DNA from: a phage
Assembly (NCBI GenBank): GCA_014435945.1
Contig: GCA_014435945.1_4088.1
Reading direction: 5' to 3' (one strand)
Length of the DNA: 64,000 nt
Shown here: positions 10,753 to 63,541 of the stretch, piece by piece
Numbering within the stretch: the stretch's first letter is position 1
Layout: each line of letters starts with the position of its first letter
The notes under the pieces: model-generated
Databases searched by the model: none
What the model saw: only the letters and a program-made list of their open reading frames with translations
What the model was told of the DNA's origin: nothing
Made by a program: the position numbers and the translations under genes

Positions 10753-10758
10753 TAATAT

Positions 10759-11566: not shown

Positions 11567-11904
11567 AAGCAATGAGTACAATAGTTATGATATATAAAAT
11601 GCTTTATACAGTATCGGGGATATATGTAGAATTAGAACCCGATTATCCAGATGGATGGAATTTTATTAAACGCTCCGATAGAAATACATGGCAAATGGAA
11701 CATTTGGATAATGACGTAATATTAGACAATTTTGTGGATTTTAATACATTATCAGAAGAAGAATTCTTCCAAATGCAATGTGTGCTTGACACAAAAGGAT
11801 TTGATGTGCTATTATTAAAGAATATACAGAAAGCTGTTAACGAATTAATATCCAATGACGAGTTAGGCAAAGTGAGGCTGTTCCATGATCTCGAAGTACA
11901 ATGA
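11563..11904 (+). CDS. hypothetical protein, paralog family 2
   Basis: motif SEEEFFQMQCVLD; close paralog of previous gene. Confidence 0.65.
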   Translation: MKAMSTIVMIYKMLYTVSGIYVELEPDYPDGWNFIKRSDRNTWQMEHLDNDVILDNFVDFNTLSEEEFFQMQCVLDTKGFDVLLLKNIQKAVNELISNDELGKVRLFHDLEVQ

Positions 11905-12460
11905 AAGCAATGAGTACAATGAAATTCAGTACACCTACGCTAATGCAATCCTTATGGGACAAAAGTTAGCTTGTATTGTTGCAGCCTTATATAATGCACA
12001 GAAAGATTACAAGCGTCACATCCACAAATGTATTGGTATTATTCCATCGAAGTACAATACATATATTGCGTGCACGAGTCATTTTGATAAACGATTCAAT
12101 ACACCTGATACCCCAAATGCCCATAGTGTTATTGGTCTTTTGGATTTTGCCCCTGGTGCTGTTATTGGAAAGAATGATTTAGAGTACGCATGGTATAATA
12201 AAAATGCCCCGTTAGTAATGGTAAAATATGATACAGAAACGAACAAAGCAATAGAGTACAATACATATAAATCAGAGGAAGAATTTTTCCAAGGTTCATT
12301 GCTTGTACCAGTGCGATTGTTATTTTATAATGTCATAATGAGTACAGTACACGATAGTCCATTACACAAGAATCACAAAATTAATTTCAATTTTTGTGCT
12401 TATGCGATTGATGGTGTTTATGAGTGCTTAATGGAGGTATTGAGTTATGAAGCTGAATAA
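11885..12460 (+). CDS. hypothetical protein, paralog family 2
   Basis: motif SEEEFFQGSLLVP. Confidence 0.65.
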   Translation: MISKYNESNEYNEIQYTYANAILMGQKLACIVAALYNAQKDYKRHIHKCIGIIPSKYNTYIACTSHFDKRFNTPDTPNAHSVIGLLDFAPGAVIGKNDLEYAWYNKNAPLVMVKYDTETNKAIEYNTYKSEEEFFQGSLLVPVRLLFYNVIMSTVHDSPLHKNHKINFNFCAYAIDGVYECLMEVLSYEAE

Positions 12461-16703: not shown

Positions 16704-16900
16704 AGACGTTTCGTTTTCACAGGCCGCAGGAGGGGGGTCAAAAAAATTTTCGCTGAAAAACATGTTAAGGTATATGTTTAATATAAAGTTTTAAAATGTG
16801 TTCACAGAGTACAGTTCATGTTTCCTGAAACAAAAAATACCCCGCCGCGAACGTTCTCCTTATATTGGAGTTTACCTTATTAATTACAGTTGAGATTAAG

Positions 16901-17278
16901 ATGGAAATAAAATATAAAGAATTTTGTATAGGGACATGGATGTACACGGGTGAGTTGATTACGTGTTGTAATTTGTACAAAGGTGATTTAAACTACACAA
17001 GGGGCAAGGTTATAAAGTTCTGGAATTCACAATTTTATTTAATGGATCTTGGTACTGGATTTAGTTGTAAAGCAACCGATATGCTGGACTATACCTTAAT
17101 GGATGATGCTGCACTATTTCAGGAGTCATTAGTATTTGACAAGAAGTACATCTGTACATTAGAAGAGATTGTTGAAATCCAGCGTAGAATTAAATGTATT
17201 CACAGGGAATGTATAGATAAATGGTGTAAAACTGGTGAAACTAATTTTAGTAATCATTTCAATCTAGGGGAAGAGTGA
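16901..17278 (+). CDS. hypothetical protein, paralog family 2 (LFQESLVFDKKY subgroup)
   Basis: motif DAALFQESLVFDKKY; first ATG used (ORF-track start 16865 is TTG). Confidence 0.6.
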   Translation: MEIKYKEFCIGTWMYTGELITCCNLYKGDLNYTRGKVIKFWNSQFYLMDLGTGFSCKATDMLDYTLMDDAALFQESLVFDKKYICTLEEIVEIQRRIKCIHRECIDKWCKTGETNFSNHFNLGEE

Positions 17279-17634
17279 TGGAATTTGATTTTGTAATATC
17301 AGTACATTCTTTTAAGAACAGTTTTCAGTACTTTTGTAATTTAAACAAAGGTGATTTAATGCACAGTGCAAATGAGTATATTCATTACACTCAGGGTAAA
17401 TTTACATTCATTGATTACAGTTCATTACAGTATCCGCATCAGGATATGCCGGATTATACAGTACTTGATGAGGCTGAACTATTTCAGGAGTCATTAGTAT
17501 TTGATAAGAAGTACTTGTGTACATTTGAAGAAGTAATTGCAATACAAAATGAAATGAAAGAGTATGACTCTTTGAATAAAGGCAATGTCAGTATTAATCA
17601 AGAATACAAATTCAATATAGGAATTCCAGAATGA
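17275..17634 (+). CDS. hypothetical protein, paralog family 2 (LFQESLVFDKKY subgroup)
   Basis: motif EAELFQESLVFDKKYLCTFEEV. Confidence 0.65.
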   Translation: MMEFDFVISVHSFKNSFQYFCNLNKGDLMHSANEYIHYTQGKFTFIDYSSLQYPHQDMPDYTVLDEAELFQESLVFDKKYLCTFEEVIAIQNEMKEYDSLNKGNVSINQEYKFNIGIPE

Positions 17635-17975
17635 CATTTGATTTTTCTATGTTTATACCTAAGATTAGTACTTCACTGGAAGTGTATTGCAATCTTAACA
17701 AAGGTGATTATGAACACAAAATGGATCAGTACATTAAATTTAATGGTTCTTACTTTAGCTTCATTGATTATCAGACCAAAGGAACAGTTGTAGAAAATAT
17801 GAAAGACTATACAACAGTACAGGGTGAGGCTGAAATATTTCAAGAGTCATTAATATTTGACAAGAAGTACTTGTGTACACTAGAGGAAGTAATTGAACTC
17901 CAACAGAAGATGAAAGAATATAGAAGAATCTGTATAGAGACTGATTCCAAAGATAGGTATTGTTTTAAGCTATGA
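17631..17975 (+). CDS. hypothetical protein, paralog family 2 (LFQESLVFDKKY subgroup)
   Basis: motif EAEIFQESLIFDKKYLCTLEEV. Confidence 0.65.
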   Translation: MTFDFSMFIPKISTSLEVYCNLNKGDYEHKMDQYIKFNGSYFSFIDYQTKGTVVENMKDYTTVQGEAEIFQESLIFDKKYLCTLEEVIELQQKMKEYRRICIETDSKDRYCFKL

Positions 17976-18158: not shown

Positions 18159-18629
18159 ATGAGTTTTGCAAGAGCATTAGAAATTGCTAAGTTAATTGAT
18201 TTATGTAAAAAGGAAATAGTACTCAATCGACTCAATGGGTATCTATTCAAGGAAGGTAAAGCTTATTGTCGAATGATATACGATGACAGTAGTGAGTACA
18301 TTCACATGTACGAAGAAAACTTAGATTCTTCTGAAACAACACTCACTGGGTGTGATGTTAATCTGGAAGATAATTACATGTACTTCTGTCGTGATGCTGA
18401 TATTTTAATACAATATACTGACATTATAACTGGTGCAGCAGAAAAACATCTTCCGTATTCAGTACTGGATAATGACTGGGGAAGTGAAGAGTTCTACTTC
18501 CAGCAGAATACTATCTACGAGGAATATGTGCTTGACAAGCTTGTCATTCTGTGGTACTTTAATAATACCGATTGTCCTAGCTTCTATCTGGACTTGGATC
18601 TACTACGAGTTATTAAAGAGGATATATGA
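18159..18629 (+). CDS. hypothetical protein, paralog family 2 (WGSEEYYFQ subgroup)
   Basis: N-terminus MSFARALEIAK; motif WGSEEFYFQQNTIYEE; LVILWYF. Confidence 0.65.
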   Translation: MSFARALEIAKLIDLCKKEIVLNRLNGYLFKEGKAYCRMIYDDSSEYIHMYEENLDSSETTLTGCDVNLEDNYMYFCRDADILIQYTDIITGAAEKHLPYSVLDNDWGSEEFYFQQNTIYEEYVLDKLVILWYFNNTDCPSFYLDLDLLRVIKEDI

Positions 18630-19066
18630 GTTTAGCAAGTGCACTTAAACTGGCACACAAAATACATCACTTCCACGATAACATAAAAAGTGGTTTCTAT
18701 GGTGATAAAGTAAGTGCATTTGGTAATGAGTATTATCTATCAGGTATAAAGACATACTCTGATGATATTTTACTTATGGGCCATGATAAAGACAATACTA
18801 TACAGTACTCTTCATGTAGTCAATATACTAGTTTTTTTGTATATATTCCAGGTACTAAGATTACTTTTGACACATCAAATACACCTGTTGACTTCGGGGT
18901 ACTTGATGGGCCGTGGGGTACTGAAGAGTATTACTTCCAACAGAGTCTTATTTTTAACCAAGAAATGCTTGATTCCTTGGTTGTTTTGTGGTACTTTAAG
19001 GAATTGAATTTTGAACCCTTCTTCCTTGACTGGGGAGCATGTGAATATTTAAGTACAGGGGATTAG
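18626..19066 (+). CDS. hypothetical protein, paralog family 2 (WGSEEYYFQ subgroup)
   Basis: motif WGTEEYYFQQSLIFNQ; VVLWYFK. Confidence 0.65.
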   Translation: MSLASALKLAHKIHHFHDNIKSGFYGDKVSAFGNEYYLSGIKTYSDDILLMGHDKDNTIQYSSCSQYTSFFVYIPGTKITFDTSNTPVDFGVLDGPWGTEEYYFQQSLIFNQEMLDSLVVLWYFKELNFEPFFLDWGACEYLSTGD

Positions 19067-19068
19067 TA

Positions 19069-19557
19069 ATGTCATTACAAAGTGCATTGAAAGAAGCAAA
19101 GAAGATTCATGAGTACATGATTATGGTACAAGAAGGTTCAGTGCCTGGTGTGTATAAAACATCTGATACTGAATTTTTTGTAAAAGACCGCGACGATTAT
19201 GATGAGTCAGAGATACATGCAGAAACGTTAGTACTACACACTGATACGGGTGATACTGATGACTGTGAATATCATATGTACAATCAGTACATTAGTTATT
19301 GTAGAGATGAAGATATTATAATTTACAGCCCTGATTACGATGATTATGACACAATCATTCCGTATTCAGTACTGGAAGGTCCGTGGGATAGTGAAGAATA
19401 TTACTTCCAGAACAGTACTGTGTACAATGAAGAAGAATTAGATGTTATTGTAATTATGTGGTACTTTAAAAGTATTGGTTCTGGTAGTTTCTATTTCGAT
19501 TATGAATACGTAGAGAATACTGTAGGGGAAGATAATGTCATTACGAAGTGCTCTTGA
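19069..19557 (+). CDS. hypothetical protein, paralog family 2 (WGSEEYYFQ subgroup)
   Basis: motif WDSEEYYFQNSTVYNEE; VIMWYFK. Confidence 0.65.
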   Translation: MSLQSALKEAKKIHEYMIMVQEGSVPGVYKTSDTEFFVKDRDDYDESEIHAETLVLHTDTGDTDDCEYHMYNQYISYCRDEDIIIYSPDYDDYDTIIPYSVLEGPWDSEEYYFQNSTVYNEEELDVIVIMWYFKSIGSGSFYFDYEYVENTVGEDNVITKCS

Positions 19558-19978
19558 TAAAGCAAAAGAACTACAGGCATATATTGAAGATATTAAGGCT
19601 GGGAAGTTCGAAGAAGTATACAAAGCCGAGAATGGTAACTACTACAAGGATATTGATTTTGCTACAACTACAGTTATTCTTGGGTTGAATTCCAAAAGTC
19701 CCGCAGATTTTTCACAATACAATCCAGATGCAGAATTTATCAGTTATGCTTATGGTGGTGAAATCCGTTTTTATAATCGCAGTAGACCGTTAAAATTGAA
19801 CTTTGAAGTACTGAAAGGTCCGTGGGATAGTGAAGAATACTACTTTCAGAATAGTACTTTGTATGATGATGAAGTAATAGATACTTTAGTTATTATGTGG
19901 TACTTTAAAAGTATTGATAGTACAAGATTTTATTTGGATTATGAATATGTACGTGAAGTATATAAGGGTAAACGATGA
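19535..19978 (+). CDS. hypothetical protein, paralog family 2 (WGSEEYYFQ subgroup)
   Basis: motif WDSEEYYFQNSTLYDDE; VIMWYFK. Confidence 0.65.
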   Translation: MSLRSALDKAKELQAYIEDIKAGKFEEVYKAENGNYYKDIDFATTTVILGLNSKSPADFSQYNPDAEFISYAYGGEIRFYNRSRPLKLNFEVLKGPWDSEEYYFQNSTLYDDEVIDTLVIMWYFKSIDSTRFYLDYEYVREVYKGKR

Positions 19979-21705: not shown

Positions 21706-21901
21706 TCGAATTGAATACATGAGAACTGTGAGTGCAGTGTGGGACATATGGTTCACTACTAAACCAAAAATGGATTACCATGACTTTAAGCTATTGTTTT
21801 TCGTTGGCTCTAACAAACAGGATGTTGCAATGAAGGGTTATATTCAGCACTTACAGGAACTAATACAGAAGAGGGTTTATGAAAATAATAAACCAAGATG
21901 A
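21674..21901 (+). CDS. small protein, family-1-like
   Basis: motif FVGSNKQDVAMKGYIQHLQELI; start ambiguous (21674 or 21719). Confidence 0.5.
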   Translation: MISMKYSKTFNRIEYMRTVSAVWDIWFTTKPKMDYHDFKLLFFVGSNKQDVAMKGYIQHLQELIQKRVYENNKPR

Positions 21902-22070
21902 TATTGCTAAACTATTCAATATATATTCTTCTAAAATGATGCAAACCGACTCATATAGTACTGAATTCAAAGAATTAAAAGTACTGATGTATTTGGGCAC
22001 ACAGTATCAGGAACAAGTTGTTAAAGAATATATTGATTCTTTACAGAAGGATATCCGTTATGTACAATGA
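21879..22070 (+). CDS. small protein, family 1
   Basis: motif YLGTQYQEQVVKEYIDSL. Confidence 0.6.
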   Translation: MKIINQDDIAKLFNIYSSKMMQTDSYSTEFKELKVLMYLGTQYQEQVVKEYIDSLQKDIRYVQ

Positions 22071-23212: not shown

Positions 23213-23572
23213 ATGAATACCATTAGTATTACGTACTACACAACGAAAAAATACGTTTGTTGTTTACTTTCGTTAAAGACAAATGATGATATGTTTGAAA
23301 TGGCGGCATATACATTAGAATTGTCAGAAGATGGATTTCAATGTCATGAAGCGTACTCAAATACACGTGAAGATACAATTGATACTACGCTAATGCAAGA
23401 AGATGAGTTATTTCAAGAAAGTTTAGTATGGGATAAAAAATACTATTGTGATTTTGATTTTCTTTGTTTAATCCAGAAAGAAATGAAAAGGATCTTCGAC
23501 AATTATCCGGTGAAGAGATTGAGTACTAAGCCGGAGCAGTACAGGAGAATTTTATTCCGTTATGAAGACTGA
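23213..23572 (+). CDS. hypothetical protein, paralog family 2
   Basis: motif QEDELFQESLVWDKKYYC. Confidence 0.65.
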   Translation: MNTISITYYTTKKYVCCLLSLKTNDDMFEMAAYTLELSEDGFQCHEAYSNTREDTIDTTLMQEDELFQESLVWDKKYYCDFDFLCLIQKEMKRIFDNYPVKRLSTKPEQYRRILFRYED

Positions 23573-24983: not shown

Positions 24984-25462
24984 TTACAACAGAATATGAT
25001 TACGATGGTGTTTTAGAATTTGCATCTAACATTCATCGCATTGCAAAGGAGTTCAGAAGTCCCCAACCTTTCGGTGGAATGCCTTTTGGTGGAATGTTCC
25101 AATATGACCAATTCAGTTCAACCAAAGGAAGACTTGCCTTTAAAAATAATAGGGACAATCAAGTATATGCTGAGTACTTTGACGATAATGACTTTCATTA
25201 CAGAGGTGAATATATTTCATATTGCCAAGGGTCCGATTTGAAGATTAACATTGATACATTTAGAGATTCAGTGCTTATCCCTTACAATGAGTTAGTTTTC
25301 ATGACTGAAGAAATGTACTTCCAAGGGTCTTGTATTCATGATGCAAAAGTACTTAATGCTATATTACTTTATGGTGCACTACTTCATCATTACAAATACA
25401 AACAACGATTCTTTTTAGATTTAGATGTATACCATAAATGCGTGGATTATTTGAATGCATAA
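24980..25462 (+). CDS. hypothetical protein, paralog family 2
   Basis: motif TEEMYFQGSCIHDA; in-frame 9-nt tandem duplication encoding FGGMPFGGM. Confidence 0.65.
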   Translation: MITTEYDYDGVLEFASNIHRIAKEFRSPQPFGGMPFGGMFQYDQFSSTKGRLAFKNNRDNQVYAEYFDDNDFHYRGEYISYCQGSDLKINIDTFRDSVLIPYNELVFMTEEMYFQGSCIHDAKVLNAILLYGALLHHYKYKQRFFLDLDVYHKCVDYLNA

Positions 25463-25817
25463 TACAACAACAATTCAGTACATGACGGATGGCAATGATT
25501 GCTTTGCTTCAAGATATGAATTCACCAAGAACCATTTCGTAACCTATATCCCTGAATATAATCAGTTTTATCTACAGATTTACCAAAATGATTCATATAT
25601 GAATGAGATATATTCTGAAATAAAAATCCCTGATTATAGTACTTTATCAGAAGAGGAATTGTTTCAGGAGAGCACTGTCAATACTGAAGATGTGTACGAA
25701 CTAATGGAATACCAGAAGGTACTTAAATATTTCCATGAAGTTCAGGATATACAAATGGATAGTGTTAAAACGTGGAATTATAACACATACGAGGTAAATT
25801 ATGTTCGAAATGATTAA
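25455..25817 (+). CDS. hypothetical protein, paralog family 2
   Basis: motif SEEELFQESTVNTED. Confidence 0.65.
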   Translation: MHNTTTIQYMTDGNDCFASRYEFTKNHFVTYIPEYNQFYLQIYQNDSYMNEIYSEIKIPDYSTLSEEELFQESTVNTEDVYELMEYQKVLKYFHEVQDIQMDSVKTWNYNTYEVNYVRND

Positions 25818-26214
25818 AATTATGCAACGATGCATTGTTGACCAACATGGAATATATGGATATAGTTTAAGTGCAGCTATTGACAAAAACAAAACAACCT
25901 ATGTAAGCTATAATTCAGTACTTGGATTTGATATATTCATTGATGCCAACAATAAAATCAAACAAGCCAAGGATGTATCTATAATGACCCCTGATGAGCT
26001 ATTTCAGTACAGCTTAGTTCTGCCCACCTGTATTGATTTACAACGCCTAGGAGCTATACAGAAGGTTTTACGCGAACATAAAGTACAACCAAATAAAATT
26101 ACACACATTCCAGAAACATTCTACAAACCCATAGAAGTAGAAACACCTGATTATATGTTAAGTGATGATGAGTTCTACAAGAAACACTTCCCTGGTAAAG
26201 TTTGGAGAGACTAA
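25801..26214 (+). CDS. hypothetical protein, paralog family 2
   Basis: motif TPDELFQYSLVLPT. Confidence 0.65.
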   Translation: MFEMIKIMQRCIVDQHGIYGYSLSAAIDKNKTTYVSYNSVLGFDIFIDANNKIKQAKDVSIMTPDELFQYSLVLPTCIDLQRLGAIQKVLREHKVQPNKITHIPETFYKPIEVETPDYMLSDDEFYKKHFPGKVWRD

Positions 26215-33745: not shown

Positions 33746-34263
33746 TGATTGAACCTATGACAGTACTAGCACGTACTAAATTATTATTGAAGATTGGTGA
33801 GATATTCACTGATATTTTGTACAGTGGGATTGATATACATGAATTAGGCATTAAGCAACCGTGGGAAATAACCAAGTTCTCTGCGTTCTATCGTTTATCA
33901 TATAAAGGGGAAACGGTTCTGGACTGGAACCCCAAAGCCAAATTCATGGAATATGCGGCGTTATATGGAAGCAATGGTGGTATAACAAATAATTTTAAAG
34001 AAATTAAAGTCCTAATTGGGTCAAAGGAATTTAATGATCTACTATATCCAGAATTTAAGTTAACAGAAGAATTAATATTTCAGTACTCATTGATTTTAAA
34101 AGATCTTAATGATTTAAAGTACTACAAAGAGTTAGTAGATATTTTTATTAATACTCGACTTTCAAAAGATATTGTGATATTCTGGTATGTTGAGTATGTT
34201 ACAGAGGAATTGCTTGAAGAATTTCTTCTAAATATGACAGCAATCAAGGAGAAGTTATGTTAG
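33745..34263 (+). CDS. hypothetical protein, paralog family 2
   Basis: motif TEELIFQYSLILKD. Confidence 0.65.
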   Translation: MIEPMTVLARTKLLLKIGEIFTDILYSGIDIHELGIKQPWEITKFSAFYRLSYKGETVLDWNPKAKFMEYAALYGSNGGITNNFKEIKVLIGSKEFNDLLYPEFKLTEELIFQYSLILKDLNDLKYYKELVDIFINTRLSKDIVIFWYVEYVTEELLEEFLLNMTAIKEKLC

Positions 34264-34730
34264 ATATTTTAGGAAACATCGATACAGCAAATTATTTTAT
34301 TCAAGATGCACTGTTCAATACAGTACAGAAAGGGTTGGATGTACGATGTAATATCCATCAGGGAGATGGGTATTTTGTTGATATCACTGAAACACGCAAG
34401 AACGTGTTCAATTTAAACATTACAACATTAGCACGTCAGAACATTGCACGTATTTTGGTCAATAAAGATGAAGTAGTTCTTCGTTATAATTCCAAATTCT
34501 TGTTCACATACAAGAAGAAGACTGACATGTTCAGTACTAATTTGTTTGATGAACCCTTCAATCTGGAAGACTTAGAAGCAACTTTCTTTACACAGAACAC
34601 TATGCTGAAATTCAATGATGTTGAATTTTCATCAGAAGTAATGTCTGAAACACTACAAATGGTTAAGGTAGTATTCTATGCTTTTCAACAGTTTAACGAA
34701 GAACGAAACAAGGTTAACAACAACAGATGA
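34257..34730 (+). CDS. hypothetical protein (family-2-like, motif degenerate)
   Basis: LEATFFTQNTMLKF at the equivalent position. Confidence 0.5.
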   Translation: MLDILGNIDTANYFIQDALFNTVQKGLDVRCNIHQGDGYFVDITETRKNVFNLNITTLARQNIARILVNKDEVVLRYNSKFLFTYKKKTDMFSTNLFDEPFNLEDLEATFFTQNTMLKFNDVEFSSEVMSETLQMVKVVFYAFQQFNEERNKVNNNR

Positions 34731-34743
34731 ACTAATCGCGGCG

Positions 34744-35091
34744 ATGGGAGCCAATGAGAAATACTTCAATGGGATTCATTTTTTTAAAACGGATCTTAGT
34801 GAAAGTAAAGTACTATATGTGTATGGTTCCCAGTACTGCATTGTTACAAAGCACCCCGACGCGATTTCACTAAAATTTAATACTTATTCAAAAAACTTCT
34901 TGACGATTAATAAAAGCAATGTTACTATGTCTGGTATAGGGAATCAGGTTGTTGAGATTCCTTTGGACTCAATTGATTCTATTGAGTTCTTTCAATACGA
35001 GTGCTTAGGTGTTGATTTTGGTACGGTCAGTACTGAATCTATGCGAACATTAATTAATCTACTTAAAGGTAAAGTTCATGCTTTTAACTAA
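34744..35091 (+). CDS. hypothetical protein, paralog family 2
   Basis: motif SIEFFQYECLGVD; start at first ATG after upstream stop (ORF-track start 34678); weak RBS. Confidence 0.5.
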   Translation: MGANEKYFNGIHFFKTDLSESKVLYVYGSQYCIVTKHPDAISLKFNTYSKNFLTINKSNVTMSGIGNQVVEIPLDSIDSIEFFQYECLGVDFGTVSTESMRTLINLLKGKVHAFN

Positions 35092-35578
35092 TTCGATGAA
35101 GAATTCATTTAAAATTATCAAAGAAATACTAAATGGTTCTAAAAATCATAGTGGGTCTTCCTTTACTAGTGACCAGATCCAACACAGTACAAAGGATTGT
35201 ACTGTAATCTTTGGGTTACATAGTCTGCGTTTGACAATAGTAAATAATATTGATAACACAGCAATTGTAATCACCCCATGTCATATTCAGAATGAAACTG
35301 GTGTATACTTACACCACATGGGGACTGTATTCTACATCTTCAATACTGAAGAAAATATTGTTAAAGAATACAACACACTCAATGTTGATGCGGGTGAGTT
35401 ATTTCAATTGAGTACTGTCAATGATTGTAACTTCAGTGACAATGCAGAAGTACTTCCATTGTTTCTAAGTCTTCTCAATAACATGGAAAAACTAACCACT
35501 GCATACAACAAAAATGACGTACCGCAAGCAGTATTGAATATCACCGAAGCAATGGAGAAATACAAAGCTGTGACCTAA
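35078..35578 (+). CDS. hypothetical protein, paralog family 2
   Basis: motif DAGELFQLSTVNDC. Confidence 0.6.
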   Translation: MLLTNSMKNSFKIIKEILNGSKNHSGSSFTSDQIQHSTKDCTVIFGLHSLRLTIVNNIDNTAIVITPCHIQNETGVYLHHMGTVFYIFNTEENIVKEYNTLNVDAGELFQLSTVNDCNFSDNAEVLPLFLSLLNNMEKLTTAYNKNDVPQAVLNITEAMEKYKAVT

Positions 35579-35620
35579 TATATGTGCACATGGAGTGCCT
35601 TTGAAGATCAAGGATAGATC

Positions 35621-36094
35621 ATGGAGATTAAAACTGTTGAGAATGGAAAGATAGATGACATTTTAGAGTTGGACGCATTCAAAGTTCATGATATAATGTT
35701 CAATGTAAAGGACATAATTCAGTGCTTGTTTTTATGCAGTAAAACTATGCACGACTTCTTTCACAATCCAAATACTAATGTTTTTATACTAACAATCAGT
35801 ACTAGCAATTCGTTTATCATGGGTATGCCTATGAGTACAAATGACGAGTACATTGATTGTGTTATTCGTAACAATGATAATATTACCCCACAATCTGAAG
35901 TACGTAAGAAAAAGAATACATACACTATCAAAGATGATAAAATCATGATGTGTTGTAGTAAAGGGTTTATTTTGGATAATTTTAAAGTGAAAGATAGTTA
36001 TCATGATTTTAAAGTATCAGAGACACAAACTAATGTAGTTCTTTACGCAAGTGATATTGAAAGCCTAACAGTTAAAGATCCCGATTTGGAGTAA
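35621..36094 (+). CDS. hypothetical protein (157 aa)
   Basis: ORF; no family motif. Confidence 0.55.
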   Translation: MEIKTVENGKIDDILELDAFKVHDIMFNVKDIIQCLFLCSKTMHDFFHNPNTNVFILTISTSNSFIMGMPMSTNDEYIDCVIRNNDNITPQSEVRKKKNTYTIKDDKIMMCCSKGFILDNFKVKDSYHDFKVSETQTNVVLYASDIESLTVKDPDLE

Positions 36095-37427: not shown

Positions 37428-37458
37428 TTGTGGACATAACAATTCCTTGTGATATAAT
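37428..37458 (+). promoter_or_regulatory. sigma70-like promoter
   Basis: TTGTGG 37428-37433, TG-extended TATAAT 37453-37458. Confidence 0.45.
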
Positions 37459-37491: not shown

Positions 37492-37878
37492 ATGAATACA
37501 AGTTCTGTTCTAAAAGCGATTGGTGGTGTACTTCTGATTGAAGTCCAGGGTGAACCTAAGCTATGTTGCTTAGAAGACATGAAGAATACTAAACACTTCA
37601 GTACTGGACAGATTTTCAATGCTATTCGTGTTCTTAACGACAAATCAGTACAAGACTATGGAAAGGTATGGCCTTCGTATGTAAATCCTGAAGGTGAAAT
37701 TAGTGCTGATTGGAAAACAATTGAAGCAGTACGTGTGAGTTGTGAGAGCGATTGGGATTTCATCGTTGAAGTATGTGACCAACTGCAAGAAGATGTGCCA
37801 GAGATTGTCGAACGTAAAGAAGTTCTTGCACAACTTGATAAATTCCGTCACGGTACTCTACCGTATGACGTAATCTAA
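37492..37878 (+). CDS. hypothetical protein (128 aa)
   Basis: ORF with GGAGA RBS. Confidence 0.6.
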   Translation: MNTSSVLKAIGGVLLIEVQGEPKLCCLEDMKNTKHFSTGQIFNAIRVLNDKSVQDYGKVWPSYVNPEGEISADWKTIEAVRVSCESDWDFIVEVCDQLQEDVPEIVERKEVLAQLDKFRHGTLPYDVI

Positions 37879-47943: not shown

Positions 47944-48207
47944 ATGAATATCCAAGATAGATTGCAATTATTGCACACACTTGAAGAAGCTGCTTTTGAA
48001 CTTGTTAATAAAATTGCACAAGAACTCCCAAAAGGAACCAAAGTTCGTGTTCGTGAAATGGATTATTTAACGGGAAAAATTGATGAAAAAGTTCTAACAG
48101 TGATCAAAGTAACATACTATGAATCAGAGTTATCAATTCAATGTAATTCAGATAATGGTTACGTTTCCTACTATGGTACAGATGTAGATATAGAGGTAAT
48201 AAAATGA
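47944..48207 (+). CDS. hypothetical small protein (loose family 4)
   Basis: ORF-track ORF 47899 trimmed to ATG after upstream stop with GGTGG RBS. Confidence 0.55.
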   Translation: MNIQDRLQLLHTLEEAAFELVNKIAQELPKGTKVRVREMDYLTGKIDEKVLTVIKVTYYESELSIQCNSDNGYVSYYGTDVDIEVIK

Positions 48208-49346
48208 CCCTTTTACAAATATATGAAGATTTAATGCACTTATGTAATACCCGTGAGGCTTTCTTTTATGTGGATCATAAAAGTCCTGCTGGTGGAACAT
48301 ATCGTGTATTCAGTTATCGTCTAGCATCATATACCGATTTCATGCAACCCAATGCATTAGAAACCCGTGGTTCTATGTGGGAAATTGATGAAGACGGTGA
48401 TATGATTCGTTGTGCTGCTCGTACTATGAAAAAGTTCTTCAATGCTTACGAAAATCCTGCTACAATGTTCCCTGCTGATACCTCATTCGATGACATTGCA
48501 GTAGTGATGCCTAAGTTGGATGGTTCAGTAATCAGTACTTACCGTGATAATGATGGTGTAATTCGTTGTAAATCACATACTGCATTGTATTCAGATCATG
48601 CGATTAACAGTACTCGTCTTCTCAATGAGAACCAAAATTTGTATCAATACATTGACGAAGCAGACCGTTTGGGCTATACTGTTAATCTGGAGTATACAAG
48701 TCCAGAGTACCGTATTGTATTACCATACCAGGTTGAACAATTATTTGTACTAAACGTTCGCCATCGCAAGAGTGGTGAACTATTATGTGGTTCTGCATTA
48801 CGTAATAAGTTCCCATGCCTTGCACAGTACAGTACTAACATGACAGGTAAAGATATTCATTACACTTTCCCTGCTCGTGCTACATTCAAAGAAAGTGTTG
48901 AAGAAGTTAAGAAAATGCTTGACATTGAAGGTTTTGTGTGCATCCTAAATAATGGTACAATGTGCAAAATCAAAACCGACTGGTATTGTTCTTTGCATTT
49001 AACGAAAGACAGTATTATAATCGATTCCCATTTATATGAAGCTGTATTAAATGGTTCGAGTGATGATTTAAAACAGTTGTTCAGTACTGACGAATATGCT
49101 ACCCAAAAGATATTAAGAATGGAACAACTAGTCTTTTCGTGCTATAATGCTTTACAAGATGAAGTTGAAAGCTTCGTCAAGGAACACAAGCACTTGGAGC
49201 GAAAGGAATTCGCTAAGAAGGTTCAGGAGTGTTTAACTAATGAACTGAATCGTCAGGGCTTGGCCTTTGCAATGTACAACAATAAGAAAGTCGATTACAA
49301 AGAGACTCTTATTAAGTACATGAAAATTGTACTAAAGGATTTTTAG
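48204..49346 (+). CDS. rnlA: RNA ligase 1 (T4 RnlA-like)
   Basis: N-terminal region ...CNTREAFFYVDHKSPAGGTYRVFSYRLASYTDFMQPNALETRGSMWEID closely parallels T4 RnlA; nucleotidyltransferase motif I KLDGS. Confidence 0.85.
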   Translation: MTLLQIYEDLMHLCNTREAFFYVDHKSPAGGTYRVFSYRLASYTDFMQPNALETRGSMWEIDEDGDMIRCAARTMKKFFNAYENPATMFPADTSFDDIAVVMPKLDGSVISTYRDNDGVIRCKSHTALYSDHAINSTRLLNENQNLYQYIDEADRLGYTVNLEYTSPEYRIVLPYQVEQLFVLNVRHRKSGELLCGSALRNKFPCLAQYSTNMTGKDIHYTFPARATFKESVEEVKKMLDIEGFVCILNNGTMCKIKTDWYCSLHLTKDSIIIDSHLYEAVLNGSSDDLKQLFSTDEYATQKILRMEQLVFSCYNALQDEVESFVKEHKHLERKEFAKKVQECLTNELNRQGLAFAMYNNKKVDYKETLIKYMKIVLKDF

Positions 49347-50168: not shown

Positions 50169-51101
50169 ATGCCAACTATCACACTAACAGTTGGATTGCC
50201 AGGGTGTGGTAAAACTACATGGGCAGTGCAAGAGATTAAAAAAGCCAAATCCAAGACTATCAACATCAACCGTGATGATATTCGTGAATCTATGGCTGGG
50301 TCACATGATGCTTACAAATTCAACGATGCTAATGAGCAGTACGTAACTAATTTACAGTTCAGTGCAGCAAATTCAGCCGCAGAGAATGGTTGGAACATCA
50401 TCATATCCGATACGAACCTTAAACAACATTTCCGTAATCTATGGAAAGTATGGGCTACAGATAATGGTTATGATTACAAAGAAAAGAATTTCTATGATGA
50501 TTTTGTACCTAATGAAGACCGTGGTGCAGATGTTCATGAATTCTTTAAGATTAAAGAGTTCGTAAAACTTTGTAAGAAATATAACCTCCAGCGTGAGCGT
50601 TCAGTACAAGATAATATCATTGACACTATGGCAGATACGTACTATTATAGTAAGGCATTACACATTGGTTACTATGGTAATTCACGCGAAGCTGCTATTA
50701 TCGTTGATATCGACGGTACTCTTGCTCATAAATGGGGACGTAACCCGTTCGATGAAAGTACTGTTCTCCAGGACACACCAGACGAAGAAGTTATTTTGTC
50801 TATTATCGCAGAAGCAGTTTTTCATAAACGCAAGATTATCGTCATGAGTGGGCGTACTGAAGGGTGTCGTGCTGATACCGAACAGTGGCTTAAGAATTGG
50901 GGTATTCCTTACGATGCATTGTTTATGCGAGACATTGATGATAAACGTCCTGATGATGTTGTCAAATTCGACCTGTACATGAAAAATGTGGTTGATCATT
51001 ACGATGTTAAAAAGGTATATGATGACCGCAATCAAGTTGTGTTCATGTGGCGTAAGTTACTTGGGTTGAAAGTTTTTCAAGTGGCTGAAGGAAATTTCTA
51101 A
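50169..51101 (+). CDS. pseT: polynucleotide 5'-kinase/3'-phosphatase (T4 PseT-like)
   Basis: P-loop GLPGCGKTT in N-terminal kinase domain; HAD phosphatase motif DIDGTLA; C-terminus VFQVAEGNF parallels T4 Pnk. Confidence 0.85.
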   Translation: MPTITLTVGLPGCGKTTWAVQEIKKAKSKTININRDDIRESMAGSHDAYKFNDANEQYVTNLQFSAANSAAENGWNIIISDTNLKQHFRNLWKVWATDNGYDYKEKNFYDDFVPNEDRGADVHEFFKIKEFVKLCKKYNLQRERSVQDNIIDTMADTYYYSKALHIGYYGNSREAAIIVDIDGTLAHKWGRNPFDESTVLQDTPDEEVILSIIAEAVFHKRKIIVMSGRTEGCRADTEQWLKNWGIPYDALFMRDIDDKRPDDVVKFDLYMKNVVDHYDVKKVYDDRNQVVFMWRKLLGLKVFQVAEGNF

Positions 51102-57372: not shown

Positions 57373-58791
57373 ATGAGCATTTTAGCAATTCTTGAAAGCA
57401 TTAAAAATACTAGCAGTACTCTGGGTAAAAAAGCTATCCTTGAACAAAACAAAGATAACCAAACATTACAAAAAGTACTGAAATATACACTAGACCCTTC
57501 AATTGTAAGTGGGTATAAAAAGCTACCACAAGCTGATGATGTATATCAACATATGACATTAGACGAAGCTATTGATAAGCTAGAATGCATTTACAAACGT
57601 GGTGTGACCGGAAATGCTGGACGTGACTTCATTGCTTCAGTACTGGGTTCAGTATCAGAAGATGACCAAGAAGTTCTTCGTAAAATGCTCACGAAGAACC
57701 TTGATTGTGGTATCCAAGAAAAGAACTGCAATGATGTGTTCGGGAAAGGTTTCATCAAAGACGAACCATACATGCGTTGTTCGTTGATTGACAAAAAGAC
57801 TGCAAAGAACATTAACTTCAAAGATTATGGTTATGCTATATCAGAAGTGAAAATGGATGGTCAGTACTTGAACCACGTTGTCATTAATGGTTCATTAACT
57901 TCTACATCCCGTAATGGTAAACTATACGACTTCCTGGGTTGTCGTGATGGTGAGATGGCAGGTCTTGCTCACATCATCCAAAGTAAAGATGAACGTTTTA
58001 GTAGTGGTGTAGTCTTTATGGGTGAAGGTGTAGTACTGGACAATGATGGAGAAACCATTCTCCCACGCACTACTGGTAACGGTATTATCCAGAAAGCTGG
58101 TAAAGATAGCATCAGTCAGAATGAAGCAATGCGTACTGTATTCGTTCTATGGGATGTTGTTCCATATGATGCATTTTGTGAAGGTGTATGGGATGTAAAA
58201 CGTAAAGAACGCCGTGAGATCTTAGTAGATGCAATTAACGAACTCGGTAGTGATTTTGTTCGTATGGTTGGATTCCGTAAAGTTCTAAACATCAAAGAAG
58301 CATTTGAGTACAATAGTGAACTAATGAACGAAGGTGAAGAGGGTTCAGTACTGAAATGTGAAGATGGTATCTGGAAATCTCACACTTCTCCTAAGCAGTT
58401 GAAAATGAAACTTAAAATGCAATTGGACTTGCGTATTGTTGGTTTCAATGAAGGTGAAGGTAAGCGTAAAGGTAGCCTTGGTTCTTTACAACTGGAAAGT
58501 GCTTGTGGTACATTGAAAGTTAATGTAGGTACTGGAATTAAAGAGAAAGACGCAGAATGGACGTTTAAAACCATTTGGGAAAGAATGCAAGAACTCATTG
58601 GTCAAGTAGTGACAGTAGAGTGCAATGATATTGTATTCGATAAGCGTACTGGTGAGCCATCACTATTTTTACCAGTGTTTATTGAATTTAGATTTGACAA
58701 AAACACCTGTGACGACTATACTCGTATCTTAGAAATTCGTGATAGTGCTGTTGAGGTGTTCTCTAATAGTATTCTTGAATCACTCGGTTAA
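57373..58791 (+). CDS. ATP-dependent DNA ligase (T4 gp30-like)
   Basis: N-terminus MSILAILESIKNTSSTLGKKAILEQNKDNQ parallels T4 DNA ligase; adenylation motif KMDGQ; 472 aa. Confidence 0.85.
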   Translation: MSILAILESIKNTSSTLGKKAILEQNKDNQTLQKVLKYTLDPSIVSGYKKLPQADDVYQHMTLDEAIDKLECIYKRGVTGNAGRDFIASVLGSVSEDDQEVLRKMLTKNLDCGIQEKNCNDVFGKGFIKDEPYMRCSLIDKKTAKNINFKDYGYAISEVKMDGQYLNHVVINGSLTSTSRNGKLYDFLGCRDGEMAGLAHIIQSKDERFSSGVVFMGEGVVLDNDGETILPRTTGNGIIQKAGKDSISQNEAMRTVFVLWDVVPYDAFCEGVWDVKRKERREILVDAINELGSDFVRMVGFRKVLNIKEAFEYNSELMNEGEEGSVLKCEDGIWKSHTSPKQLKMKLKMQLDLRIVGFNEGEGKRKGSLGSLQLESACGTLKVNVGTGIKEKDAEWTFKTIWERMQELIGQVVTVECNDIVFDKRTGEPSLFLPVFIEFRFDKNTCDDYTRILEIRDSAVEVFSNSILESLG

Positions 58792-58810: not shown

Positions 58811-59602
58811 ATGAAATTTGTTGTAACGTCAGACGTACACGGTGGCACTGATTACCTCCATAGTGGTGATTACAGTGATACAGTACTGATTATTGCAGGG
58901 GACTTTGATGAAGCTAAACGCAGTCGTTATCGTACTGGTATCGAATCCCTGTGCAAGCAGTTCAAGAATGTAGTACTGGTTCCTGGTAATCATGAGTACT
59001 ACGGTTCAAACATTCACAAGACTAATAAAGTACTGTCCGATATGCAAGATGAGATTCCAAATTTCATCTTTTTGCAAAACAAATTTGTATGGCTGGATGG
59101 TGTACTGCTGGTTGGTAGTACACTGTGGACTGACTTTGATAAAGGCAATGCACTGGTTAAGTTTGATGCTCATCAAAAGATGAATGATTATAAACACATT
59201 CGTCATGGAACAACATCAGAACCGTGGAAACGTAAGCTCAAACCTGATGATGTTGAGTTCATGCATTATCAGGATAAACAATTTATCAAAAATTCAGTTG
59301 ACACAGTTCGTCTAATGAATGATAATGATTTCAAGGTTGTGGTGGTAACACATCATGCACCAAGTTATCAGAGTGTATCTCCGAGATACAAGAATGACTC
59401 ACTGAATGGATGTTATTGTTCTGATATGGACCAGTACATCGAAGATTTGGGTGCTGATGTTTGGATTCATGGTCACGTTCATAGTAGCTTTGACTACAAT
59501 ATTGGGAAAACTCGTATCATTTGTAACCCAAGAGGTTATGAATCTTACAGTGGTGCATGTGAGAACTTCGATTACGATCCTAAATTTGTATTTGAAATCT
59601 AA
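58811..59602 (+). CDS. calcineurin-like metallophosphoesterase
   Basis: motifs SDVHGG, GDFDE, GNHEYY, VTHHAP, GHVHSS; AGGAGG RBS. Confidence 0.75.
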   Translation: MKFVVTSDVHGGTDYLHSGDYSDTVLIIAGDFDEAKRSRYRTGIESLCKQFKNVVLVPGNHEYYGSNIHKTNKVLSDMQDEIPNFIFLQNKFVWLDGVLLVGSTLWTDFDKGNALVKFDAHQKMNDYKHIRHGTTSEPWKRKLKPDDVEFMHYQDKQFIKNSVDTVRLMNDNDFKVVVVTHHAPSYQSVSPRYKNDSLNGCYCSDMDQYIEDLGADVWIHGHVHSSFDYNIGKTRIICNPRGYESYSGACENFDYDPKFVFEI

Positions 59603-60007: not shown

Positions 60008-60390
60008 TGGAAAATGTTGTTGTATATATAATTGAGTACAATGATGAAATCAAGTACGTGATTAATGGTTATAAACATTACTCCAGTGCAGCCAGAAAGC
60101 TGGAAATATATTCAAAAGAAGCAAGAAACTACTGCTTAGATGATGATTCAGTTGAGGTTTGGATTGATGGAAATGCAGAGTACTTTGATGCTGACTTCTA
60201 TGAAGATCTTGACAAATCAAATGACTTATACATTTATGTAGAAAATGAACGTTATTACACAAATTCTTTGTTTGACATTACCGACTCTACGGTGTATGAT
60301 AATGCTATGGTTAAGTTGTTAAAGATTGACCACGATATGTTTAATAAACATACAATTTGCGGTTTACTAGATTTTTTAAGAAACTTGTAG
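60007..60390 (+). CDS. hypothetical protein (127 aa)
   Basis: ATG overlaps upstream TGA. Confidence 0.55.
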   Translation: MENVVVYIIEYNDEIKYVINGYKHYSSAARKLEIYSKEARNYCLDDDSVEVWIDGNAEYFDADFYEDLDKSNDLYIYVENERYYTNSLFDITDSTVYDNAMVKLLKIDHDMFNKHTICGLLDFLRNL

Positions 60391-60415
60391 ACAAATACGA
60401 ACACTGTGATATAAT
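60385..60415 (+). promoter_or_regulatory. sigma70-like promoter (TAGACA type)
   Basis: TAGACA 60388-60393, 16-nt spacer, TG-extended TATAAT 60410-60415. Confidence 0.5.
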
Positions 60416-60449
60416 ACTCACATCAATGAAACAATAGAGGAAAATAACA

Positions 60450-61145
60450 ATGGTTGAACAATTCAATTTTGGTGGTTATGCTGGTGGTGAAGTTCGCAAC
60501 ATTTCTATTCCTTATGTAGTTGAAAAAGTTAATGGTGCAGAACGTACTTATGACCTAGCATCTCGTATGATGCAAGACCGTATCATTTTCCTTGATACTG
60601 ACTTCAATGACCAAATGGCACATATCATCAAGCAACAATTGGTGTGGTTGGATTCTCAGGGTTCGGAACCAATTACCTTCTACATTAGTTCTCCTGGTGG
60701 TTCAGTACACGCAGGTTTGGGTATCGCTGACATTGCTAAGTCTTGTGTATCTCCTATCCGTACAGTAGTAATGGGTTATGCAGCATCAATGGGTTGTTAT
60801 ACTCAATCAGTAGTTGGTACTAAAGGTTTCCGTCTAGGCGGGAAGCGTTCTTACTTCATGTGTCACCAAGTAAGTTCTGGTACTCAGGGTTTGATTACTG
60901 ACCAGAAGATTTCTTTGAAACACTCTGACGCATTGAACACACTACTAACTAAAGAAATTGCTGAAGCAGTTGGTGTATCACACGAACAACTACTGAAAGA
61001 TGCGGACCGTGACCTGTGGTTGAACGCTGAAGAAGCACTCGAATACGGCGAACATGGTTTCATTGATGGTATCATCCTTGGACCACGCAACGAAGAAGGT
61101 AAGTATCTCGTCAAACGTCGCGGCGGCGTGGAAGAGTGGGTCTAA
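60450..61145 (+). CDS. ClpP-family serine protease homolog
   Basis: YISSPGGSV, GYAASMGCY (Ser) and MCHQVSSG (His) match the ClpP core; GAGGAAAA RBS. Confidence 0.8.
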   Translation: MVEQFNFGGYAGGEVRNISIPYVVEKVNGAERTYDLASRMMQDRIIFLDTDFNDQMAHIIKQQLVWLDSQGSEPITFYISSPGGSVHAGLGIADIAKSCVSPIRTVVMGYAASMGCYTQSVVGTKGFRLGGKRSYFMCHQVSSGTQGLITDQKISLKHSDALNTLLTKEIAEAVGVSHEQLLKDADRDLWLNAEEALEYGEHGFIDGIILGPRNEEGKYLVKRRGGVEEWV

Positions 61146-61196
61146 TTTGAATTTCATTTGATGCCTCATTTGGGGCATCTTATTTCTGGAGATTAT

Positions 61197-62048: not shown

Positions 62049-62576
62049 GTGGATATGCAGCAATATAAATTATCTGAAGATCAAAGTGATTTATTTTTCA
62101 ATCACATGTTTTTAATTGATGAATTTGCCGAAAGTTTAAATTCAGAGGCAATAGCTATAGTTAAAAAGTGGTATTCTTGCTATAACAAGAACAAAAAATG
62201 GTATTGGTTGAATAGAAATTTAAAATCATTTCTAGGAACAATAACCAGTACTGATAGTATTGAACTAATACATAGTTCCATTGGCTACAGTTACTTAACC
62301 AAGCATAATAATAATACGTCAATAGAGTCTGGCTTCAAAATCAAGCGTCTAATGAAATTGACGGGATTGAGTGCAGAAACTATACAAAACGATACAGAAA
62401 AGTTATGGAAGATTATAGAATTCATGAATAAAAATATGTCATTTATATATAGAAACTACGATATATTCACTGACGTAAGACAATTTTATAATAGTCCATA
62501 TTCACTTGATGAGAAATATTTCAGTCACATGGAATTATGCTCAACTGTGGTTGATGAATGGAATTTAGAGGATTAA
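62049..62576 (+). CDS. hypothetical protein (175 aa)
   Basis: ORF after terminator, GGTGG RBS. Confidence 0.6.
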   Translation: MDMQQYKLSEDQSDLFFNHMFLIDEFAESLNSEAIAIVKKWYSCYNKNKKWYWLNRNLKSFLGTITSTDSIELIHSSIGYSYLTKHNNNTSIESGFKIKRLMKLTGLSAETIQNDTEKLWKIIEFMNKNMSFIYRNYDIFTDVRQFYNSPYSLDEKYFSHMELCSTVVDEWNLED

Positions 62577-62577
62577 C

Positions 62578-63105
62578 ATGAAATACACTGCTCTTAGCCC
62601 AACTGATACTAAAGTATGGTTGAGCAATTTGAACAAAACTATCATTTTGACAAAAAAAGTGATATCAACAGCTAATTCATTAGATGTAAATATCAAGAAG
62701 AATGTTCTTAAATATCATCACCGAAGTAAACTTAGTACTTGGTACTCCAATATTTTTTACGGCTTATATGGGATAGATGATATTATAATTGGTACATCAT
62801 CTGGGTCATGTTTCAGTACTGGCGGGATGTGCTTTATGGATTTGGGTTTTTCATTATCAGATGAAGAAATCGAGTTTAAACAATTCCGTGACAAGTTACT
62901 GGGTTCGGGTGATATCAAGTTCTGTACAGAATTAATGGGAGCATGGGACGTTTATGCAGCGAAACCATTTGACATTGAAGAATCAGATGTGCTAAACTAC
63001 CTTCGTATTCTTAAAATACATTCGAACTGTAAAGCCAAATTACAATCCCTAGGAGTATATGATGAAACACTTGACGTGGTTGAAGATAGCCGAAGTCGTG
63101 GCTGA
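62578..63105 (+). CDS. hypothetical protein (175 aa)
   Basis: ATG 2 nt after upstream stop; 3' end overlaps the deaminase start by about 45 nt. Confidence 0.55.
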   Translation: MKYTALSPTDTKVWLSNLNKTIILTKKVISTANSLDVNIKKNVLKYHHRSKLSTWYSNIFYGLYGIDDIIIGTSSGSCFSTGGMCFMDLGFSLSDEEIEFKQFRDKLLGSGDIKFCTELMGAWDVYAAKPFDIEESDVLNYLRILKIHSNCKAKLQSLGVYDETLDVVEDSRSRG

Positions 63106-63541
63106 AGAGAGTAAATGCATTTCACAGAAAGTTGGTTGTGTTATTGTTAAAAATAACCGAGTATTGAGTACTGGTTATAATGGCACTCCATCTAAACAAC
63201 CTAACTGCTGTGACGCTAATGAGCACTTAGTTAATGGTGGACGTTTCCAAGACTGGGTTAGCGATGACGCAAAGCATGAACACCATGAATGGAGTAATAT
63301 CCATGAAATCCATGCTGAAATGAATGCATTGTTATACAGTTCACCTACCGAACGTCAGGGAGCAACACTTTACACAACGCTGCAACCATGCTATACTTGT
63401 TCTAAGTTGATCGCGGGAAGTGGTATTGCTCGCGTGATTTATCACAAAAGTTATCCTCGCACTCCACCAGAAGCTATTAAAGTACTGGAAGATGCTGGGA
63501 TTATTGTAAATTGCATTTATGATAAGGGGTTGGGACTTTGA
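63059..63541 (+). CDS. cd: dCMP deaminase (T4 Cd-like)
   Basis: zinc-binding HAE (HEIHAEMNAL) and PCxxC (PCYTCSKL) motifs; N-terminus LKIAEVVAEESKC parallels T4 Cd. Confidence 0.85.
   Translation: MMKHLTWLKIAEVVAEESKCISQKVGCVIVKNNRVLSTGYNGTPSKQPNCCDANEHLVNGGRFQDWVSDDAKHEHHEWSNIHEIHAEMNALLYSSPTERQGATLYTTLQPCYTCSKLIAGSGIARVIYHKSYPRTPPEAIKVLEDAGIIVNCIYDKGLGL

Follow-up and report, generated by a model that had tools for sequence, protein, structure and literature searches.

We analysed a stretch of phage DNA of 64,000 nucleotides (contig GCA_014435945.1_4088.1 of the NCBI GenBank assembly GCA_014435945.1; this whole stretch is referred to as the window) and concentrated on its gene clpP, at 60450-61145, which encodes a protein of the ClpP family, the proteolytic subunit of the Clp ATP-dependent protease. 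The gene and the features in and around it are as follows.

60385..60415, plus strand: sigma70-type promoter of clpP, with a -35-like element TTGTAGACA followed by an extended -10 element TGTGATATAAT (consensus scan)
60436..60441, plus strand: Shine-Dalgarno sequence AGAGGA, 8 nt 5' of the clpP ATG (direct reading)
60450..61145, plus strand: clpP coding sequence, ATG start, 231 amino acids and stop
60450..60503, plus strand: N-terminal extension of about 18 residues, a presumptive propeptide, preceding the I-P-Y-V-V-E axial-loop segment
60786..60788, plus strand: codon of the catalytic Ser113 (AASMG), the counterpart of E. coli Ser97 (mature numbering) in the alignment and the same in all of the 50 sequences aligned
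60864..60866, plus strand: codon of the catalytic His139 (CHQ), equivalent to E. coli His122 in the alignment and likewise without variation
61011..61013, plus strand: codon of the catalytic Asp188 (DRD), preceded by the ring-sensor Arg187; the two align with E. coli Asp171 and Arg170 and are invariant in the clade
61077..61142, plus strand: C-terminal extension, residues ~210-231, G.RNE.G..V.RR.G..(E/D)W(V/I), present in 32/32 clade members and in none of the cellular ClpPs
61160..61189, plus strand: intrinsic-terminator-like hairpin with a T-rich tail, between the clpP stop codon and the next ATG at 61197 (terminator scan)

The original prediction had assigned this open reading frame (ORF) to the ClpP family with exactly these coordinates and had given it a private promoter at 60385-60415, and both statements held. 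The protein matched the Pfam family CLP_protease (PF00574) with an E-value of 1.3e-41 and a score of 142.9 bits (gathering cut-off 20.2), and its residues 19-209 aligned with solved cellular ClpPs, the best of which was that of S. pneumoniae (1y7o; E=3.3e-36). Among the NCBIfam ClpP models, TIGR00493 was matched over its full length with 153.3 bits (cut-off 308.6) and a second model with 156.4 bits (cut-off 249). The window protein is a diverged member of the ClpP family and not an NCBI 'equivalog'. It is 36% identical to E. coli ClpP (P0A6G7; the reference sequence is identical to that of PDB 3mt6).

Ser113 and His139, which had been singled out earlier as the catalytic residues of the AASMG and HQ motifs, align with the triad of the E. 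coli enzyme, and Asp188 completes it, so that there is no loss of the triad. The oxyanion-hole residues Gly84 and Met114 correspond to E. coli Gly68 and Met98 and are likewise invariant in the 50 aligned sequences. The axial-loop residues Pro21, Val23, Glu25, Glu31, Arg32 and Arg39 are the equivalents of E. coli Pro4, Val6, Glu8, Glu14, Arg15 and Arg22 and show no or almost no variation. In all the 32 members of the clade, we observed that the triad, the oxyanion Gly and Met, Arg170 and the axial-loop positions Pro4, Val6, Glu8, Glu14 and Arg15 (E. coli numbering) are unchanged. An AlphaFold2 model of the protein had a mean predicted local distance difference test score (pLDDT) of 91.4 and showed a long handle helix at 149-174. 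When this model was compared with the PDB by Foldseek, the best 50 matches were all cellular ClpPs, with target-normalised template-modelling scores of 0.91-0.96 and root-mean-square deviations of 1.2-2.0 Å (superposition partners included the ClpPs of S. aureus, T. thermophilus and E. coli). As modelled, the window protein keeps the complete fold of a ClpP subunit, including the handle that provides the ring-ring interface.

Comparison with the orthologue of phage 121Q gave 86% identity for the DNA and 96% for the protein, and the ratio of nonsynonymous to synonymous substitution rates (dN/dS) was 0.032, the lowest among five neighbouring genes compared. Because this value of 0.03 lies below those of its neighbours, clpP is a functional gene. 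By these sequence comparisons, the product is a full-length ClpP with a complete catalytic site, under strong purifying selection. The GC content of clpP (0.42-0.44) is slightly higher than that of its neighbours (0.31-0.40); since the GC content of the ligase gene is raised too, we disregarded this difference as a sign of transfer.

The protein also has features that are specific to its clade. The N-terminal extension varies in length and sequence among the orthologues, is almost missing from the Yersinia phage protein and has low pLDDT; by analogy with the 14-residue propeptide of E. coli ClpP, these ~18 residues are probably removed by processing. The C-terminal tail was modelled as short beta-strands with pLDDT >90, and a 3-residue insertion is likewise common to all the 32 clade members, without any counterpart in the cellular ClpPs. 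We take the apical docking pocket for the IGF/IGL loops of the unfoldases to be lined, in E. coli, by Tyr60, Tyr62, Phe82, Ile90, Met92, Phe112, Leu114 and Leu189. Of these positions, Tyr62, Ile90 (Val), Met92, Phe112 (Leu) and Leu189 (Ile) are retained in the clade, while Phe82 is replaced by Asn or Ser, Leu114 by Gly (31/32) and Tyr60 by Thr. The clade-specific tail and the remodelled pocket are concrete handles on partner specificity.

The window DNA is that of an Asteriusvirus jumbo coliphage of the 121Q/PBECO4 group. The region shares 95-98% identity with the Asteriusvirus phages vB_Ec-M-J (98.3% against the window), TH47, CMSTMSU, EC.P1 and further ones, whereas 121Q, PBECO4 and phAPEC6 stand at ~82%. 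The ClpP protein is 100% identical to the already deposited ClpPs of CMSTMSU and WPEC3. Its gene is surrounded by those of a DNA ligase (57373-58791), a metallophosphoesterase (58811-59602), small proteins and a deoxycytidylate (dCMP) deaminase (63059-63541), and the wider neighbourhood holds an Rnl1-type RNA ligase, a polynucleotide kinase and a second metallophosphoesterase. No head-morphogenesis genes were found near clpP in the window. The earlier statement that clpP lies amid ligase and deaminase genes and outside the head module is therefore borne out, the neighbours being genes of nucleic-acid metabolism and of small proteins.

The order ligase, ClpP, deaminase is kept in the Pectobacterium phage CBB/GAP32 and in Callisto, a PA5oct-like Pseudomonas phage whose ClpP is ~34% identical to that of the window. 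As the order is kept even in Callisto, the position of clpP is ancestral for the clade and does not reflect a recent insertion. In Callisto, a gene for an FtsH-like ATP-dependent zinc metalloprotease (761-2491 of the examined stretch) lies directly upstream of the DNA ligase gene, in a block syntenic with the clpP region. A search of 5.8 billion proteins returned ~66 clusters of at least 61% identity to the window ClpP, on contigs of up to ~370 kb, after which the identity dropped to at most 53%, with generic ClpPs at ~45%. These sequence relationships point to an old phage lineage of ClpP. A recent capture from the host was considered and ruled out, as E. coli ClpP is only 36% identical, cellular ClpPs reach at most ~53% and the clade is sharply bounded.

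The first part of the window corresponds to roughly 154-193 kb of 121Q. No AAA+ protein was found among the ORFs of at least 230 amino acids in the window. Related phages encode one at another locus. The 'ClpA-like' protein gp581 of 121Q (762 amino acids) has the Pfam domains AAA, AAA_lid_9, AAA_2 and ClpB_D2-small as well as both Walker A motifs, and it is colinear with E. coli ClpA over 17-741 versus 20-734 (E=2.4e-180), the N-domain included. Its best NCBIfam model is TIGR02639 ClpA (754.7 bits), ahead of ClpB, and the equivalog cut-off of 993 is not reached. At the place of KSIGLIH in E. coli ClpA, gp581 has the docking loop RSIGMSG; the Asteriusviruses have IGM as their docking tripeptide, CBB has LGM and Callisto IGF. 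The third component, a ClpS-like adaptor, is represented by gp48 of 121Q, which scored 24.7 bits on Pfam ClpS (cut-off 23). This protein of 181 amino acids aligns with E. coli ClpS over the segment of the N-degron pocket, with several substitutions, and has ~70 extra N-terminal residues. Its gene stands in a setting unusual for a protease adaptor, immediately behind the gene of an IF3-like translation initiation factor and before a KTSC-domain gene (gp47-gp49; 33944-35623 of the examined 121Q stretch, L003).

By tblastn against 50,697 phage records (query coverage of at least 80%), we found ClpP of at least 60% identity in 70 records, ClpA of at least 60% in 71 and the ClpS-like protein in 72. 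All three sets comprise the same jumbo phages, of Escherichia, Klebsiella, Salmonella, Erwinia, Yersinia, Pectobacterium, Serratia and Cronobacter. EC.P1 has ClpP, ClpA and ClpS, and the ClpA of vB_Ec-M-J (EcMJ_316) is encoded at 168,677. Iyer et al. (2021; PMC7824862) state that ClpS is encoded 'instead' in several other phages, for which a protein of CBB is their example; CBB carries ClpP, ClpA and ClpS.

Next, we consider the promoter of clpP, which consists of TAGACA, a 16-nt spacer and TATAAT with an upstream TG (11/12 matches in the consensus scan); its exact motif has a single occurrence in the window, where 0 were expected. The terminator-like hairpin that follows the gene, at 61160-61179, has a stem of 8 bp with five GC pairs and a 4-nt loop. 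The clpA promoter of 121Q, EC.P1 and vB_Ec-M-J has the same architecture, with TTGACA, a 17-nt spacer and TGTGATATAAT, and within the DNA examined, clpP and clpA alone were found to have the exact arrangement TTGTAGACA-N16-TATAAT. In general form, the architecture TTGnnGACA-N11-TGTGATATAAT recurs before clpP, clpA, topoisomerase II and a gene of the window for a protein of 128 amino acids (ORF 37492-37878). Promoters of this kind were located at the following positions.

Window, 37428-37458 and 60385-60415
Stretch L006, 11686-11716
121Q stretch L003, 38010-38040

A shared promoter specific to the clp genes was ruled out, as relaxed matching also places the architecture before topoisomerase II and another window gene, and the 121Q clpP promoter differs in its -35 region. 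Judged by its sequence, the promoter would belong to a general strong early/middle class and not be a signal of a clp regulon. The PA5oct RNA-seq paper makes no gene-level statement on the timing of clpP transcripts.

Taken together, we consider it likely that the window protein is the ClpP core of a ClpAP(S) machine of the phage itself, of non-morphogenetic function, in the Rak2-like/Asteriusvirus jumbo phages. According to this model, the host RNA polymerase would make ClpP early or middle in infection. The protein would lose its N-terminal ~18 residues autocatalytically and form a two-ring tetradecamer, with the phage ClpA hexamer as its main cap, the IGM loops of which would dock into the partly remodelled ClpP pockets. 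Cytoplasmic proteins may then be unfolded and fed in by ClpA, either alone or together with the ClpS-like adaptor, and degraded. The likely substrates would be regulators or defence proteins of the host, phage proteins that are surplus or misfolded in a long, protein-heavy infection, or both. A double-heptameric barrel and ATP-dependent degradation are suggested indirectly, by the retained ring-sensor Arg187 and its Asp and by the cognate ClpA that is encoded.

Several points weigh against this model. The strict NCBI equivalog cut-off for ClpP is not reached (153 versus 308.6 bits), and we found in the searchable literature no experimental work on a phage-encoded ClpP concerning its activity, oligomer, partner or substrates. 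The early/middle timing of clpP is proposed from the type of its promoter. Two pocket positions are non-hydrophobic (Phe82 to Asn/Ser and Leu114 to Gly), because of which the docking of an IGF/IGL-type loop is not assured. The genes clpP, clpA and clpS lie at three separate loci, and hence their functional link is drawn from co-occurrence and homology only. Finally, mass spectrometry of the virions of phage CBB gave one peptide of its ClpP, CBB_104, at 4.5% coverage (PMC5259590).

The last of these points leads to the possibility that clpP encodes a protease for capsid (prohead) maturation, of the ClpP-like S14 type, placed away from the head module. The name is in use: several GenBank/RefSeq records call the protein a 'head maturation protease', its best PHROG match is phrog_94 'head maturation protease' (9.5e-44), the structural genes of jumbo phages are scattered, and the single peptide came from CBB virions. 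However, 121Q and vB_Ec-M-J have a T4-type head module, 119-122 kb from clpP, in which a dedicated gp21-like protease accompanies the portal, a structural protein, the scaffold and the major capsid protein. This protease is a clear Peptidase_S77 (Pfam, 74.6 bits against a cut-off of 27; phrog_207, 1.3e-58). In the virion proteome of phAPEC6 (62 proteins), the gp21-like protease gp227c, the scaffold, the major capsid protein and the portal are present and ClpP (gp353c) is absent (PMC7247149); the peptide from CBB is the one observation that points the other way. On NF045542 (Clp_rel_HeadMat), the NCBIfam model for the 'head maturation protease, ClpP-related', the window protein reached 51.1 bits against a cut-off of 120, compared with 153-156 on the ClpP models, and on the fusion model NF045540 it reached 48.7 bits against 475. 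By the sequence signals, late-type transcription is not indicated either. T4-late-type boxes TATAAATA precede the genes of the major capsid protein, scaffold and baseplate, and all four copies in a structural region of 49 kb (vB_Ec-M-J 165000-214000) are found 18-55 nt 5' of late structural genes, whereas clpP has a sigma70 promoter and no such box. Within the 64 kb of the window, both strands included, there were 0 copies against 12.8 ± 3.6 expected; selection against the box seems to act in this early/middle block. The MEROPS S14-type head-maturation proteases (NF045542, NF045540, phrog_94) have in common with ClpP a ClpP/crotonase-like fold and a Ser-His catalytic core, but they are encoded beside or fused to scaffold or capsid genes and lack the unfoldase-docking apparatus, and the window protein differs, being encoded far from the head module and retaining axial loops, handle and the full ClpP architecture. 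As phrog_94 is a broad profile of 622 columns that pools ClpP-fold proteins, its label appears to be a transfer artefact, and the misnaming of clpP in several records follows from this best match. In vB_Ec-M-J, the label 'head maturation protease/protein' is carried by three genes that are unrelated or at most distantly related, those of ClpP, of an exported ClpP-like protease and of the gp21-like S77 protease, and such naming is also found in the RefSeq records of 121Q, CBB and GAP32. On the evidence here, the name is an annotation-transfer error for clpP. We consider an unusually placed prohead protease, which the original prediction had allowed for, highly improbable: the search for scaffold and capsid genes outside the window located the head module far from clpP, and the separate S77 protease, the type of promoter, the virion proteome and the NCBIfam scores are all contrary to it. 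Hardly credible is the further proposal, that the enzyme is a site-specific processor of small 'FQ-motif' paralogs at the window start. Such a family exists: ~22 mostly tandem paralogs of 63-90 amino acids (~70), with the core LGTN[Y/F/H]QE, lie at 1181-7080 and 21879-22070 and are probably the ones that had been meant, although apart from their existence only the earlier suggestion speaks for this role. The motif lies in the conserved core of a fold-sized domain and looks structural. Its form is Y/F/H-Q-E and not FQ-S, and in all the plus-strand ORFs of the window there is one FQ[ST]. The genes are not linked, being ~55 kb apart. ClpP is a processive degradative peptidase that cuts polypeptides inside its chamber, and it is not known as a sequence-specific endoprotease except in the self-processing of its propeptide.

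A different question is with which partner the peptidase would work. It could be a stand-alone ClpP that uses the ClpX and/or ClpA of E. coli, boosting ClpXP/ClpAP or replacing or poisoning the host ClpP rings, while the phage ClpA-like protein acts as an independent chaperone or translocase. The unfoldase-contacting axial-loop residues are invariant and match those of E. coli ClpP, the pocket residues Tyr62, Ile90, Met92 and Leu189 are kept or conservatively changed, and the clp genes are unclustered; furthermore, phage ClpP, ClpS and ClpA/ClpX have been listed separately, with ClpA/ClpX as possible translocases or assembly aids (Iyer et al., PMC7824862). Against this, the I/L-G-M/F tripeptide of the phage ClpA is kept clade-wide, which would be pointless without a ClpP partner, and ClpP, ClpA and ClpS occur together in the same ~70 genomes. 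The low identity to E. coli ClpP, the pocket changes and the C-terminal tail suggest a co-adapted interface and not a host-matched one. A mode that employs host unfoldases alone would account neither for the retained docking loop nor for the joint inheritance of the three genes, and we regard this explanation as unlikely. What the original prediction had said of a stand-alone protease acting with the host ClpX/ClpA may hold for an added activity, but would hardly hold for the sole mode, since these phages encode their own ClpA and ClpS-like adaptor at other loci. A non-proteolytic or decoy subunit, which would sequester the host unfoldases (as an anti-ClpX/ClpA) or scaffold the phage ClpA, would fit a remodelled pocket and an extra tail that could change partner binding, and a second ClpP-like gene nearby shows reuse of the fold within this genome. 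Yet the triad, the oxyanion hole and Arg170 are invariant down to ~61% identity and dN/dS is 0.03, which argues that catalysis is selected and makes a decoy very unlikely. We conclude that the alternatives, which had been thought inseparable, can largely be separated by means of the S77 protease, the late boxes, the virion proteome, the NCBIfam models and the phage ClpA and ClpS.

Going beyond the phage ClpAP(S) machine that we favour, one may imagine an orthogonal, self-contained ClpA-ClpP-ClpS machine whose docking interface has diverged jointly from that of the host, in the IGM loop, in the pocket changes of Phe82 to Asn/Ser and Leu114 to Gly and in the ordered C-terminal tail of ClpP, and which is insulated from the host ClpX/ClpA and from host regulation, in which the enlarged ClpS-like adaptor retargets N-degron-type recognition to host proteins such as defence or restriction components. 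We advance this tentatively, as a possible but rather doubtful extension; if true, the insulated machine would be a virus-encoded system of targeted protein degradation in bacteria.

The phage set may be compared with known systems. E. coli ClpAPS has the same three-part list; the ClpP fold, triad, axial loops and handle are alike, and ClpA is colinear over ~725 residues with the docking tripeptide in the same place. The phage set differs by a ClpP of 36% identity with replaced Phe82 and Leu114, an ordered C-terminal tail of ~20 residues and the 3-residue insertion, by an IGM instead of an IGL loop, by a ClpS-like protein of 181 amino acids with altered pocket residues, and by its arrangement in three loci with phage promoters. 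The ClpPs of other giant phages (Agrobacterium Atu_ph07, Pseudomonas PA5oct/MIJ3/Callisto, Bacillus phage G, the Lak megaphages and Salicola SCTP-2) are also full-length, come from phages of >280 kb, lie away from the head genes and are often accompanied by ClpA/ClpX/ClpS homologues, but they are 33-41% identical to the window ClpP and lack the C-terminal tail of the enterobacterial clade. Human mitochondrial ClpP has a C-terminal extension on its apical face that is reported to modulate the binding of ClpX. That extension has no sequence relation to the phage tail, which is predicted to be ordered, and the analogy is a lead only.

The presence of ClpP in jumbo phages is already known and annotated in dozens of records, and the ClpP/ClpA/ClpS homologues of Rak2-like and other jumbo phages are in print (PMC6102473, PMC7824862, PMC5259590, PMC12707154). 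Iyer et al. (2021) described the jumbo-phage ClpP as a patchily distributed and probably host-directed peptidase (PMC7824862), and the roles suggested for phage Clp proteins are help with stress or aggregates in infection (PMC6102473) and possibly anti-restriction (PMC12707154). Viewing the three Clp genes as a single system inherited together, and describing the tail and the pocket, is what is new here; this is a small refinement and no discovery. To ask whether phages direct a targeted proteolysis of their own at host regulators or defences, a coliphage that brings the complete set of ClpA, ClpP and ClpS is the most tractable system.

A second, very divergent ClpP/S49-like serine protease (121Q gp473 / EcMJ_208) is encoded just past the window end, from ~64,080 on (25081-25689 of the vB_Ec-M-J stretch L001 and 25526-26134 of stretch L002). 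It is 25% identical to the window ClpP over 102 residues, scores 16.7 bits on Pfam CLP_protease (cut-off 20.2) and, having a signal-peptide-like N-terminus, is probably exported. A hetero-complex of the ClpP1/ClpP2 type formed by the two proteins was ruled out by the low identity, the sub-cut-off Pfam score and the probable export. An HslV-like Ntn peptidase, gp475, adjoins gp473 (L001 26039-26632, L002 26462-27058); it starts with Met-Thr and matches phrog_1040 with 1e-23. The genome also has DnaJ-like and GroES-like genes beside the HslV-like peptidase and the exported ClpP/S49-like protease, and together these genes constitute a broad toolkit of proteostasis and proteolysis.

Scans of the window for tRNA genes and Rfam families were empty. 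The T4 Rnl1-type RNA ligase (48204-49346) and the polynucleotide kinase/phosphatase (50169-51101) are encoded 0.8 kb apart and form an RNA/tRNA-repair pair of a type that acts against the anticodon nucleases of the host. Between clpP and the dCMP deaminase gene, two adjoining ORFs (62049-62576 and 62578-63105) encode 175 amino acids each, without detectable mutual similarity; the product of the latter is named 'virion structural protein' in 121Q and vB_Ec-M-J despite its place. The window is rich in locally duplicated genes, with ORFs of small to medium size, and further clusters of tandem paralogs lie at 4671-5380, 10122-12460, 16865-17975 with 23213-23572, and 18159-19978, with pairwise E-values down to 1e-36.

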